From the NCBI GenBank assembly GCA_034722055.1, contig JAYENL010000314.1:1-64000 (forward strand): a stretch of 64,000 bases of DNA, read 5' to 3'. Position numbers and translations under genes: made by a program. Shown one piece after another: positions 1 through 42,453 of the stretch. Under the pieces are notes generated by a model. That model saw only the letters and a list, made by a program, of their open reading frames with translations. It searched no databases and was not told where the DNA came from. Source of the stretch: Armatimonadota bacterium. GTDB taxonomy: Bacteria > Armatimonadota > Zipacnadia > Zipacnadales > UBA5352. Each line of letters opens with the position of its first letter. Position 1 is the stretch's first letter.

Positions 1-41
1 GGTGTGACAGGGACAGCCCGTGAGGGCCTACCTATGTCAAT
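1..41 (+). mobile_element. 3' end (DV tail + domain VI) of a probable group IIC intron; the rest lies outside the window
   Basis: GGTGTG matches the end of class C DV (..CGGTGGTGTG). DVI stem GACAGGG(6-12) pairs with CCT[A]TGTC(31-38), with a bulged A34 eight nt from the AY end (AAT, 39-41). Apical GCCC-GTGA-GGGC GNRA hairpin. Confidence 0.65.
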
Positions 42-310
42 TGCTGTTTGTCGTTGCAGCCCTCCCGGCCCCAGCCGTCGGCTCGGACAACGCCGGGCCG
101 GACAGTAGTCCCGCCCCTGTGCGCCTCGCAGCGCACGTATCCAGTTGGTTGGAGTCCAACCGGAGGTACTCGTGTGATGTGGAAGCCTCCGTAGCAGCGG
201 TCAAGGAAGCGCGGCGACGCGCGACGTGGTCGTTTCCGTAGCTGGTGGCTGGTAGCTCGTCGCTGGACACAAGCCCGCCCCTCCTCAGGCACGTCAAGCG
301 CCGCTGTTCG

Positions 311-402
311 GTGGCACGGACACTCCTGTCCGTGCGGCGCCCGGCGTTGGCTCAACGCCGAACGACGACGACCGGGCCGGGACGGAGACCGGCTCCCTCC
401 AA
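311..402. repeat. REPIN-like pair: GTGG-foot REP hairpin plus inverted GGAG-foot REP
   Basis: GTGGCACGGACACTCCTGTCCGTG (311-334) and GGGCCGGGACGGAGACCGGCTCCCTCCAA (374-402); the same pair recurs at 9061-9213, 9239-9390 and 23161-23251. Confidence 0.75.
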
Positions 403-615
403 ACGGCTGGGCAACGGCCCTACCCGCTTCTCTGCGGGCGGGCGCCCCCGAACGACCGGGCGGGCAAGGAAGCGCGCCGATCCGTCTCTTCAAAACCTGC
501 GGGGCGGGCGCCGTCGCCCGCGCCTCCTGACGACACGACTACCCACGCCGCTCGCGGCGGCGGCACTGGCACAGGGCGTGGGGGTGGCGGGCGTGGCCGG
601 GGCCGGGCGGTGAGG

Positions 616-1401
616 TCAGCGCTGCTCGTCGATGGCGCGGATGACGACCTCCAGGAAGGTCTCGGGGTTGCGGAGCTGTCCGAACTGCAGCCCGGGGAAG
701 CGCCGGCGGAGGGTATCAGCCAGCCGCGAGGCCAGCCGCCTTCGGGCCTGTGGCGCGAGGTCGAAGCGGCGCTCAAGGAAGCGGCGGATGGTCCTCTCCT
801 CCTCCCGGGTGACCGTGCGGGCGCCGGCTCGGACCATGCGCAGCACCTCGCCGCTCACCTCCGGCGGCAGCTCCGGGGCCTCGGGCTCCTCCTCGGGCAG
901 CTCCGTCATGGGCGCCAGGCGCTCCTTGACCACCATGGTGCCCGCCGCCAGGTCGCCCAGGCGCTGGTTGCGTGCCGTGACCAGCAGTGAGATCACCCCC
1001 GCCGCGTAGAAGATCGGCAGCCAGTCCGCGATGCGCAGGATGTTGCGAACCGCCGACTGCTCGGCGCTGATGGGCGCGCCGTCGGTGGAAATCACTCGCA
1101 GGCCAGTGAGGGTCTTGCCGGGAGACTTGCCGCTCCGGGTCAGCTCGAAGAACATGTAATACGCGATGTAGATGAGGATGGCGGCAGAGAGGGCGATGAG
1201 CCCTGCGAACGCCGACACCAGGCCCTGGCCGGTGAGCCTGGCCCGAATGATGAAGACCACGAATGCCAGCAGCAGCGTCCCGACACCCACGATGAAGGTG
1301 TCGATGGCCGCGGCCAGGAACCTGGACCCGAGGCCTGCAAGCTGGTAGGAGACCTCGATCTGTTCCGGGACGTAAAGCTGCACGCGTTCGTCATCAACCA
1401 T
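616..1401 (-). CDS. RDD family membrane protein
   Basis: LAGLGSRFLAAAID, GKSPGK..GLRV, RNILRIAD and QRLGDLAAGT motifs; AGGAG RBS; usual partner of the MoxR/DUF58/SpoIIM cluster. Confidence 0.9.
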   Translation of the reverse strand: MVDDERVQLYVPEQIEVSYQLAGLGSRFLAAAIDTFIVGVGTLLLAFVVFIIRARLTGQGLVSAFAGLIALSAAILIYIAYYMFFELTRSGKSPGKTLTGLRVISTDGAPISAEQSAVRNILRIADWLPIFYAAGVISLLVTARNQRLGDLAAGTMVVKERLAPMTELPEEEPEAPELPPEVSGEVLRMVRAGARTVTREEERTIRRFLERRFDLAPQARRRLASRLADTLRRRFPGLQFGQLRNPETFLEVVIRAIDEQR

Positions 1402-6787: not shown

Positions 6788-8560
6788 TTAGAAGGGTACC
6801 TCCACACCGGCCTGGACCAGGTCCAGGTCCTGTGCACCGCTCACGGCGCCCTGGTGCGCGTAGGTCAGCACCACATCGACGGTGTCGGTGACAGGCAGGG
6901 TGGCCGACGCGGAGTAGAGCTGGTCATAGAACAGCCCATTGAGCTGGTAGGGGTTCCGACCAGCATAGTCGTATCCGTTGGGATTGAGGTTGTTCGGATC
7001 CCAGTAGTCGGAATTGTTCTCCAAGTCGTAGTAGGCGACCTGGAAGGGGACGTTGCCCAGCTCGAACATGAGCTGGCCGCCGAGGACCTGAAGGTTCGGC
7101 ATGACCAGCGGTCGGCGCAGCCAGCGCTCCCAGGGGATGTAGGCGCCACTGGGCCCACTGGTCTGGAGGACCTCGTAGTAGGGGTTCACGCTCGAGTAGT
7201 AGATGTCGTACTCGGCGTCCGCATCCGAGTAGAAGCCGGTCAGCGAGAAGCTACCGGTCTTCCACACGTCCACCATCGCCATTATGGCGCTGGGGTTCTC
7301 AGTGCTCGACCTGCCCCGGGCGCCGGGCGTGGTGTGGCGGTTGGCGTGCTCATCGATCTGAGCTGCCTCTACGTAGATGTCCCGACCCCAGATGTTGGCC
7401 CACAGATCGACGCTGTAGGCCTCTTCATCGTTGATGCGATTGGGGTTGCCGGCGTGGGTGCCGGTGAAGGTCCACGCGTTCTGCTGCGAGACACCGCTGA
7501 CCAGCCAGTTCCCGCCGAGCGCCCAGCTCGACGAGGTCAATGCGGCGCGGGCGGCGACGTAGCCATCCGCGTCATTGGGGACGGTGTCCGCATCGGGGGT
7601 CCGCGCGAAGGCGTAGAGGTCGGTGACCTCGTCAGCCTGGCCGGCGAACCACTCCACATCGAGGCCGATGTCCAGGAAGTCGGGCCACTCGCTGCGAACG
7701 CCCTGCAGCGACTGGCGATCGGTGTCCACGATCAGCCCCATGCCGTAGGCCAGGTTCTGTCGGCCGATGGTCCAGGTCACGGGGTTGACGAAGTCGGTGT
7801 TGAACCGCACGTAGGCCTCATCGAGCCACAGGTCGCTGCCGGCATAGCCGTCGTTGGGCGCCATGCCGTCGCGAGTCTGCAGCATGATGGCGCCGTAGAC
7901 ATCGTCGGTGATGTCGCCAGCGATGCCAAGGCGGGCGGTCAGGTTGTCGTACTCGTTGTCGAGGTCAATGTCCTCACCAGCCAGACCCATGCGCCAGTCC
8001 AGCCAGCCGGTGACCTCGGGGCCACCGAGCTGCTGCTCGACCCAGTTGAGGCGATCGGACAGGTCGTAGACGTCATTCTGGAGGAACTCAACATCCTCCT
8101 TGAGATCGGCCAACTCGTCCTTGAACTCGTCAAGGAGGCGGTTGACGATCTCCGCGACCTGGTCCTCATCGATCTCACCGGGAGGCCCCTGGTCGCCCTG
8201 CGGGCCCTGGGGGCCCTGAGGGCCGGCGGGGCCCTGCTCGCCCTGGGGGCCCTGCGGCCCGGCCGGGCCCTGCTCGCCCTGCGGGCCCTGGGGGCCCTGG
8301 GGGCCGCGCTCACCGGCGCCGACCTCGGGCATCTTGTCGAGCAGGCGCGAAATGGCCATCGCGAACTCGTACCGGGTCATGGCCCGATCGCCCTTGAAGG
8401 TCCCATCGGGGTACCCGATGATGATGCCCTCCTCAACGAGCTGCTGGACGGCATCATATGCCCAGTGGTCGAACGGAACGGTGTCCGCTGGACTCGTCTG
8501 GGCGAAGGCAGGCACGGCGATGAGCATCGCCAGTGCCAGAACGGCGACTGTCTTTCTCAT
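6788..8560 (-). CDS. SLH-domain outer-membrane tether/porin (OmpM/SlpA-like) with collagen-like repeat
   Basis: Signal peptide (AFA|Q); SLH motif [34 protein letters not shown]; 16 Gly-X-Y triplets; coiled coil; beta-barrel-like C-terminus ending in F; GAGGAGG RBS. Confidence 0.85.
8171..8314 (-). repeat. Collagen-like (Gly-X-Y)16 coding repeat
   Basis: [48 protein letters not shown]. Confidence 0.95.
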
Positions 8561-9054: not shown

Positions 9055-9410
9055 CGTTCCGTGGCACGGGCACTCCCGCCCGGGCGCCGTTTGTCATTGT
9101 CGGTGAGATCGCTTGCGATCTCCGGAAGCCCGACCTACGCGGGGGCATGGAGCCTACGCGAAGGATGGCGCGCACGACAACGACCGGGCCGGGACGGAGA
9201 CCAGCCCCTCCAAACGGCACGACAACGCCTGCCGTTCCGTGGCACGGGCACTCCTGCCCGTGCGCCGTTTGTCATTGTCGGTGAGATCGCTTGCGATCTC
9301 CGGAAGCCCGACCTACGCGGGGCATGGAGCCTACGCGAATGATGGCGCGCACGACAAGGGCCAGGCCGGGACGGAGACCGGCGCCCGCCAAGCGACACGA
9401 CAAACGGCTG
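9055..9410. repeat. Tandem duplication of a 178-nt REPIN-like unit
   Basis: Near-identical units start with CGTTCCGTGGCACGGGCACTCC at 9055 and 9233; a truncated third start lies at about 8981. Confidence 0.9.
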
Positions 9411-22827: not shown

Positions 22828-22960
22828 GCCCGAAGGCGCTTGGGTGCCTCTCCCCGTGGCCACAGCCCCGCCCGGAGGCTCTCGGGCGGCTCTCCCCGCG
22901 GCCATAGCCCTGCCCGGAGGCGCTGGCGCGCCTTTCCTCGCGGCCACAGCCGCGCCCGGG
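22828..22960. repeat. Degenerate 42-nt tandem repeat, about 3 copies
   Basis: Units start GCCCG(G/A)AGGC at 22828, 22870 and 22912, each containing CG(T/C)GGCCA(C/T)AGCC. Confidence 0.8.
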
Positions 22961-41849: not shown

Positions 41850-42453
41850 TTGGAGGGGCGCGACTACGCCCGCGCCCGGTCGTCGTGCCGTATGGAGGGG
41901 CCGGACCACTGTCCGGCCCGGCCTTCTCTCTGGCTCTGGATTACCCACAACTTCCGGAGGAAGGCCTGCGATGGAGTTGAGCAAGAGCTCAACCGTGTCG
42001 TCGTTCGGAGAGGCCGCCCGAACGGAGCGAGGGTGCCGCCCGGCCTGCCCGTTAGGTAGTCGAGGCCCCCCGCCTTCACGCCGTTCAGGCCTCTCCAGAG
42101 AGAGGTGTCCTGGGCCGGGGTGGAACCTTCGGCCTGTTCGCTGCGCTCACTGGCCTCACCGGGCGCTACGCGCCCGGCGGCCCCTCCATCACGGCAACCG
42201 GCTTTGCCGCGCAGCGTGGGCACGGGCCCTCCACGAGCGCGGCAGATGTGGGTAATGCATAGCTCTCTCTGGAGGGCCCGCGCCCCAGCGAAGGTGTTCC
42301 ATCCTGGCAGGCCGGCGGCCCCCTGGCCCACTGCATCTTCGGGAAGCCGGCGCCCCCGCCGGCCCACTCCATCCTTGGGAAGCCGGCGCCCCGGCCGGCC
42401 CACTCCATGTTTGGGAAGCCGGCGCCCCCGCCGGCTTGTGGCGCACAGCGCCA
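41850..42453. repeat. REP-rich region including a 36-nt tandem REP array
   Basis: TGGAGGGG REPs at 41851 and 41893; a copy of the 12122-12218 half-element at 42111-42188; GGGAAGCCGGCGCCC at 42341, 42377 and 42413. Confidence 0.85.

Follow-up and report, generated by a model that had tools for sequence, protein, structure and literature searches.

The first 41 nucleotides of the window (the whole stretch of 64,000 nucleotides analysed here, from an Armatimonadota bacterium) form the 3′ end of a class C (IIC) group II intron with many copies, called intron A below, and a second intron fragment, intron B, starts 77 bases beyond the end of intron A, at the foot of a partner REP. The explanation that fits best, and that we consider quite probable, is that intron A follows the IIC insertion rule with a CGT site paired to an ACG guide, that its window copy came to lie passively at a GGAG-type REP, and that the partner REP was taken separately by intron B. 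Overall, intron A belongs to the ordinary class C introns, apart from its unusual guide; modestly new at this locus are intron B, the more unusual part, and the presence of two introns at one REP pair.

The contig on which the window lies (C314) starts at window base 1, and the genome (G000) consists of 330 contigs with 68% G+C. The features are collected in Table 1. The repeat array and introns A and B lie downstream of the RDD-family gene, which is on the opposite strand, so that the two introns share one strand and are antisense to this gene.

Table 1. Features of the window discussed in the text, with their coordinates
Feature	Position	Strand	Remarks
Intron A, 3′ end (class C group II)	1..41	+	Last bases of DV and linker 1–4, DVI 5–39, bulged A34, AY end; 14 identical copies at contig ends
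3′ exon of intron A; spacer within inverted REP pair	42..94	+	IBS3 = T42; 42–118 is 75/77 identical to G000:C240:24371-24447
Inverted GGAG-type REP	95..118	-	Arms 95–103 and 108–116; intact in C240; 5′ exon of intron B if read on the + strand (IBS1 CCCCT, 114–118)
Intron B, first 76 nt (ORF-less group II, truncated)	119..194	+	Matches the C293 copy from its 5′ end, 100% identity
Mosaic REP array, GGAG- and GTGG-type hairpins	195..600	.	One hairpin at 311–335; ~196–480 homologous to the array upstream of the C293 intron B
RDD-family gene	616..1401	-	Pfam PF06271, E 4.9e-21
GTGG-type REP and tail	9239..9277	+	Real REP; not a model for the window insertion site

A preliminary description, made from the letters of the window, had read positions 1–41 as a DVI with a bulged A at −8 and an AY end. 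This was borne out: the fold spans 5–39, the unpaired A34 is at −8 and the end is AAT, the fold being weak if taken alone (z −1.86, with 6 of 200 shuffles equally good). The accompanying assignment to the 3′ end of a group IIC intron was also upheld by a CGC-type DV, a match to RF02001 and a GsI-IIC-like RT in a relative. Rfam returned nothing at gathering score on the window alone, because the contig begins at base 1 and DV lies off it. The sequence of 1–41 occurs 14 times in the genome, in identical form, always at a contig end and each time with a different 3′ exon, and the copy number of intron A is at least 14. Inspection of the other copies with intron models, as had been suggested, found a DV upstream in 13 of the 14 tails, scoring 40 bits against RF00029, which is exactly its cut-off. 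In these 13 copies the DV is 32 nt long with a CGC triad, and the upstream-extended tails end a reading frame. As regards the other end of the element, ten 5′ ends were found, all at contig ends and all starting with GTGTG, with five sequence variants among the nine long enough to compare; the AGGAA motif of domain I is present in all three long 5′ ends, and on RF02001 the 5′ end scores 129 bits, against a cut-off of 32. A shortened DV of the CGC type and the AGGAA motif are among the class C features given in the accessible part of PMC1702495.

The remainder of the intron A body was not in the assembly when its own genome was searched, as expected for a collapsed repeat. The contig carrying the intron tail was ~29 times deeper than single-copy contigs in runs X2 and X4, a depth that is no copy number and was left uncounted. 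Contig ends with the 5′ and 3′ parts of intron A could be paired directly for C20 and C65 and probably for C17 and C7, with no other pairs. At C20 and C65, an unoccupied second copy of the target, repeated in tandem and identical over 123 nt, lies next to the intron A copy. The identity of the 3′ ends suggests that intron A has been active recently.

Relatives of the intron were taken from a metagenome scan (121 loci). Two of them, L049 and L052, are complete at 1895 nt and are 94–95% identical to intron A at both ends; the ORF of L052 is an RT/maturase of 465 aa, with the GsI-IIC RT as its best PDB match (514 bits, vs 139 for LtrA). In this genome intron A retains the last 16 IEP codons, 13 of which are identical to the L052 ORF, and these codons together with the 94% relative suggest that an intact IEP of intron A would exist. 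The RT ORF that the preliminary description had proposed to look for was thus found in L052, and in the own genome just as those 16 codons; profile searches of the own genome with GIIM and RVT_1 returned no intron IEP (assembly 93% complete). Two own-genome RT matches, on C318 and C185, were rejected as intron IEPs, since they are only 28–40% identical to intron IEPs. The former (L015, G000:C318:14051-17635) is a stand-alone RT of 411 aa placed, by eye, directly upstream of cas1-/cas2-like ORFs and downstream of a RAMP-like ORF; the latter (L016, G000:C185:4191-7616) is an RT domain within an open frame of 1006 aa, ~30% identical to intron IEPs. L017, the one exact 36-nt match among GTDB contigs, had no RT among the listed ORFs and was left out. 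For four class C relatives (L031, L056, L088 and L129), the upstream hairpin is the DVI of another class C intron, whose 3′ end they adjoin directly.

The window copy of intron A very likely sits behind a GGAG-type REP hairpin, ~4 nt after the stem, as judged from a paralogue and from sequencing contigs. In the intron-free paralogue on C240 (Table 1), a GGAG-type REP hairpin and TCGT directly precede the matching stretch, and in a 78-nt contig of run X1, which may itself derive from the C240 locus, window 41 is preceded by this REP tail too. The preliminary description had instead likened the 3′ exon to the tail of the GTGG-type REP at 9239 and had named a GTGG-type hairpin as the target. The likeness is real, with 12 of 15 letters shared between 42–56 and 9263–9277, but the tail motif follows both GTGG- and GGAG-type hairpins; within two mismatches it has 37 matches in the genome, some of them beside no hairpin. 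We give hardly any credence to the reading in which intron A inserts flush behind a GTGG-type hairpin (CACGGGC...GCCCGTG) and has such REPs as its main target, which is largely refuted already. Beyond the shared tail, this reading can point to the intron A copy on C238, which does follow a GTGG-type REP, but there the intron is 12 nt behind the stem, after CGT, and not flush; moreover, the 75/77-identical paralogue is of the GGAG type, and an intron inserted flush would have GTG at the end of its 5′ exon, which was seen in none of ten 5′ exons and is mismatched to EBS1 ACG. Nor do the 5′ exons share that hairpin, as had been expected: tagged REPs of any type precede three of ten (two GGAG, one GTGG), and seven are not tagged REPs.

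What the insertion sites have in common points instead to a strong hairpin followed by a CGT site. The 5′ exons end in CGT in eight cases out of ten, in TGT in one and in CGC in one, and the first base of the 3′ exon is C or T in 12 of 14 cases, in agreement with an EBS1 ACG and, by eye, an EBS3 G. A hairpin of −10 kcal/mol or lower is present in 8/10 5′ exons, compared with 4.5% of 29,793 sampled CGT/Y sites (p 6.5e-10), the two without one being those on C104 and C323. Hairpins and REPs were called by folding energy and tagged 16-mers, with the same rule for sites and background; an earlier rule was dropped since it missed two obvious REPs, one with a bulge and one with an extended stem. At the left end of C323, the intron A copy appears to interrupt a multi-copy gene in antisense, with paralogues on C134, C78 and C152. 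By eye, we take the interrupted gene to be a tyrosine recombinase. Across 19 related introns, EBS1 and IBS1 form Watson-Crick pairs at 50 of 57 positions, where shuffling gives a mean of 26.5 and 0 of 10,000 shuffles as high; this set comprises introns with readable EBS1 and exon, tandem intron-after-intron cases being excluded, and the figure overstates the effect since the introns are related. Intron A thus likely obeys the usual IIC rule, in which a strong DNA hairpin is followed within about 4–12 nt by a short guide-paired site, here CGT pairing with EBS1 ACG. From what is known of the class, as given in the accessible parts of PMC4424553 and PMC8919778, the intron-IEP ribonucleoprotein would insert by reverse splicing into single-stranded DNA, choosing the hairpin and its three- to four-base site, and copying would use a primer from the replication fork.

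REPs take about their expected share of the intron A insertions, with no preference shown. Among all CGT/Y sites the REP share is 1.5%, against which three of ten 5′ exons are an enrichment (p 4e-4); among strong-hairpin sites it rises to 15%, vs 3/8 observed (p 0.11; energy-matched expectation 1.2 vs 3 observed), and among the 1,524 CGT/Y sites that are both non-coding and behind a strong hairpin it reaches 42%, vs 2/7 observed (p 0.87). The mask for coding sequence is rough (89% counted as coding) and removed the C238 copy, which is at a REP, and 3/8 is perhaps the fairer count, which is still below 42%. Of the 14 3′ exons, four start in repeats by an automatic rule, where 39% are expected (p 0.87), and six have REP-preceded paralogues as judged by eye. 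Dedicated REP targeting was therefore not seen for intron A, its REP use (2/7 or 3/8, vs 42%) not being above availability, with the reservation that n is small and that copies in REP arrays may drop out of a fragmented assembly, which would hide enrichment. The proposal that the abundant REPs serve as intron landing pads survives in a passive sense, three of ten 5′ exons being REPs against an availability of 42%; the window copy would lie 4 nt behind a GGAG-type REP simply since REPs supply many non-coding sites. A IIC intron found at a REP is, by itself, no proof of REP targeting, as about 40% of the non-coding hairpin sites that it could use in this genome are REPs.

A more active part for the REPs would be that intron A has adapted to them, selection for the CGT-rich tails of numerous, harmless host REPs having turned its guide from GAA into ACG. 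In favour of this, the three closest complete relatives have an EBS1 of GAA or GAG and exons ending in TTC, both 5′ exons found in a genome of the same genus (G001) also end in TTC, and ACG occurs in 1/19 introns, intron A itself; furthermore, CGT is the top trinucleotide behind strong REP hairpins (592 sites, TTC being at rank 20 with 101 sites), and there are the REP-preceded paralogues noted above. Yet CGT exceeds TTC behind non-REP hairpins too (1,253 vs 545), so that high G+C alone favours CGT, the change is a single one that was ranked post hoc, REP use stays within availability and most of the 5′ exons are without a REP tag. We consider such selection unlikely: guide adaptation to REP tails is possible, and high G+C accounts equally for the guide. 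It is of interest that, in introns 94% identical to each other, EBS1 has switched naturally, a three-base change that redirects a IIC intron off U-tailed terminators.

The abundance of REPs, already noted in the preliminary description, was confirmed: the repeats are RAYT-type REPs, and inverted copies flank RAYT-like genes. A loose rule called 1,846 tagged, repeated hairpins on both strands, with 16-mers in up to 164 copies, and their tags are mostly GGAG or GTGG and not the canonical GTAG. A GTGG tag is in print for one REP family, and GGAG was not found in the accessible parts of PMC3733652 or PMC8266576. Six Y1 transposase genes are present in the genome (on C61, C193, C100, C256, C30 and C324). 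Inverted hairpins, clear by eye, flank the RAYT-like genes on C30 and C256 (GGAG-tagged) and on C324 (GTGG-like), the latter being an inverted pair closely similar to the hairpin at window 9239, and the two of the six Y1 genes that were scanned with the RAYT model NF047646 score 94 and 76 bits (cut-off 80). The REP label is justified for these repeats despite their non-GTAG tags. The six RAYT-like genes adjoin different hairpin families, mostly GGAG-tagged, and form an unusually varied REP/RAYT set.

The partner REP had been described as a degenerate GGAG-REP at about 94–118. The hairpin is indeed there, at 95–116, but it is cut by intron B at 119 and not decayed: the last two letters of the GGAG tag are absent from 95–118 because intron B, which had escaped the preliminary description, begins at 119. 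A complete intron B of 387 nt, ORF-less, lies on the minus strand at G000:C293:11174-11560 (L001) and scores 43.7 bits on RF00029, with a fold z of −5.0; on RF02001 it reaches 25.5 bits, below the cut-off. Both copies in this genome are inserted inside the GGAG tag of an opposite-strand REP, after CCCCT, where the intact C240 unit continues with CC, and the EBS1 of intron B, AGGGG, is complementary to this CCCCT at the foot of the inverted REP. Guide and exon end also agree, by eye, in relatives of intron B (5/5 positions in G023:C36, 4/5 in G297 and 5/5 in G111). Among B-type 5′ junctions, 15 of 21 from eight genomes follow a hairpin of −8 kcal/mol or lower, a raw count with no own-genome background. 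For the three junction types tested, the host itself has 79, 98 and 20 occurrences of the motif, as against 0–8 in the other four genomes; thus, relatives of intron B sit at repeats of their own hosts in the three genomes tested, the junctions of G001, G037, G038 and G049 and the other G023 junctions having been left out. In the present genome, 529 of 1,725 sites with a hairpin and CCCCT (31%) are REP feet, and the presence of intron B at two of two is weak alone. L152 (G023:C566), a class C relative, has a 5′ exon ending at the reverse-strand foot of the host repeat used by the G023 B-type introns.

Intron B is not of class C, as argued by its AGC-type DV and by the IEPs of two distant relatives (L217 and L219), which fall outside the 38-row clade of the relatives of intron A in a quick tree (branch 1.46, SH-aLRT 99). 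Both L221 and L061 have long branches in this tree, and L221 was excluded from the relatives of intron B. L217 scores 208–225 bits against its four closest PDB RTs, compared with the 514 bits of L052 against GsI-IIC. No B-type IEP was found in the assembly, which is 93% complete and is also without the IEP of intron A, and a plasmid collection held no relative of intron B. An isolated DV-DVI remnant of a B-like intron is found just after a gene end at G000:C121:3777-3844 (L207), with 26.8 bits on RF00029, below the cut-off. The partner REP would have been entered separately by ORF-less intron B, a member of a lineage other than class C, which would later have been truncated.

In run X4, a 269-nt contig contains window 41–194 exactly, with 115 letters ahead of it that are not on an intron A end. 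This one contig fits an allele with intron B and without intron A, a hint that intron B came first and intron A later. From 195 onwards the sequence continues with a REP unit similar to that upstream of intron B on C293, and intron B was therefore shortened by deletion or rearrangement. A contig end with dense repeats, made up of a mosaic of C240-like and C293-like units, could also be an assembly chimera of collapsed repeats, in which case the neighbourhood of intron A, REP pair and intron B would not be real; in fact, among the contigs listed, none bridges 41/42 with intron A at the left. We consider a chimera very improbable, as the 14 copies have all different 3′ exons and a consistent first base, contigs of runs X1 and X2 bridge 118/119 (63–176, no differences), and contigs of these two runs extend over 165–336 at approximately single-copy depth (43.5 vs 46.4 and 20 vs 16.7), one letter short of the bridging rule at 194/195. 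At 68% G+C, stop-free frames told nothing about the gene context and were discarded.

As far as the accessible parts of PMC1702495, PMC4424553 and PMC8919778 go, intron A resembles the class C introns B.h.I1 and GsI-IIC in its short CGC-type DV, AGGAA motif, EBS1-IBS1 pairing of 3–4 bp and EBS3, and likewise in having a hairpin where IBS2 would be, many copies and, in its closest relative, an En-minus RT of ~465 aa. It differs from them in that its guide is ACG and not A-rich, its sites are without U tracts and about one third of its hairpins are RAYT-type REPs. Insertion behind terminators "or other inverted repeats" is reported for IIC introns in the part of PMC1702495 seen, and U-tailed hairpins were not preferred over U-less ones in that of PMC8919778. 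The association of a minority of group II intron copies with REPs is already in print: a table of PMC1525189, a source seen in part, places 2/9 copies of a Pseudomonas putida KT2440 group II intron at REPs. As in intron A, it is a minority of a multicopy group II intron that is found at REPs (22% vs 30%), but the KT2440 passage comes without class, register or control, whereas for intron A the EBS1 and the availability of sites explain the share. ISPpu9, ISPpu10 and ISPa11, in the same partly available source, are also mobile elements with REPs as intergenic targets; they are, however, DNA transposons found at REPs in 100% of cases (7/7, 7/7 and 6/6), vs 3/10 for intron A. For intron B the nearest frame is provided by the IEP types g6, U1 and U2, adjacent to class C and found after terminators according to the accessible part of PMC8919778. 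They share with intron B a hairpin-adjacent insertion, a position near but outside class C and an IIC-like domain I (RF02001); intron B differs in its AGC-type DV, its EBS1 of 4–5 bp and, in the three genomes tested, the use of host REP feet. Likened by description alone, intron B could be one of g6, U1 and U2. A literature search, with subscription papers mostly outside reach, returned nothing on an adaptation of group II introns to REPs.

Taken together, these data also admit a wider reading, which we regard as tentative and rather doubtful, namely that two intron lineages, class C intron A with its move to EBS1 ACG and lineage B with a hairpin and a five-base guide that fits, host by host, the foot of the inverted REP of that host, have retuned their guides to RAYT-spread repeats. 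If true, hairpin-seeking group II introns would track REP families, a third class of target beside terminators and attC. Should the host-by-host match of intron B to REP feet hold, it would be a compact retroelement programmed by a hairpin plus five bases, and the spread of a group II intron would be tied to REP/RAYT dynamics.

Other repeats were observed in the window and in the genome. Positions 8178–8306 of the window are an array of 9-nt units (minus-strand Gly-Pro-Gln-like repeats), probably collagen-like coding sequence, and tandem repeats of three copies each, of 42 nt and 36 nt, are located at 22828–22959 and 42325–42435, respectively. Further repeated ends, in groups of 3–8, are present among the contig ends of G000 and resemble collapsed insertion sequences.
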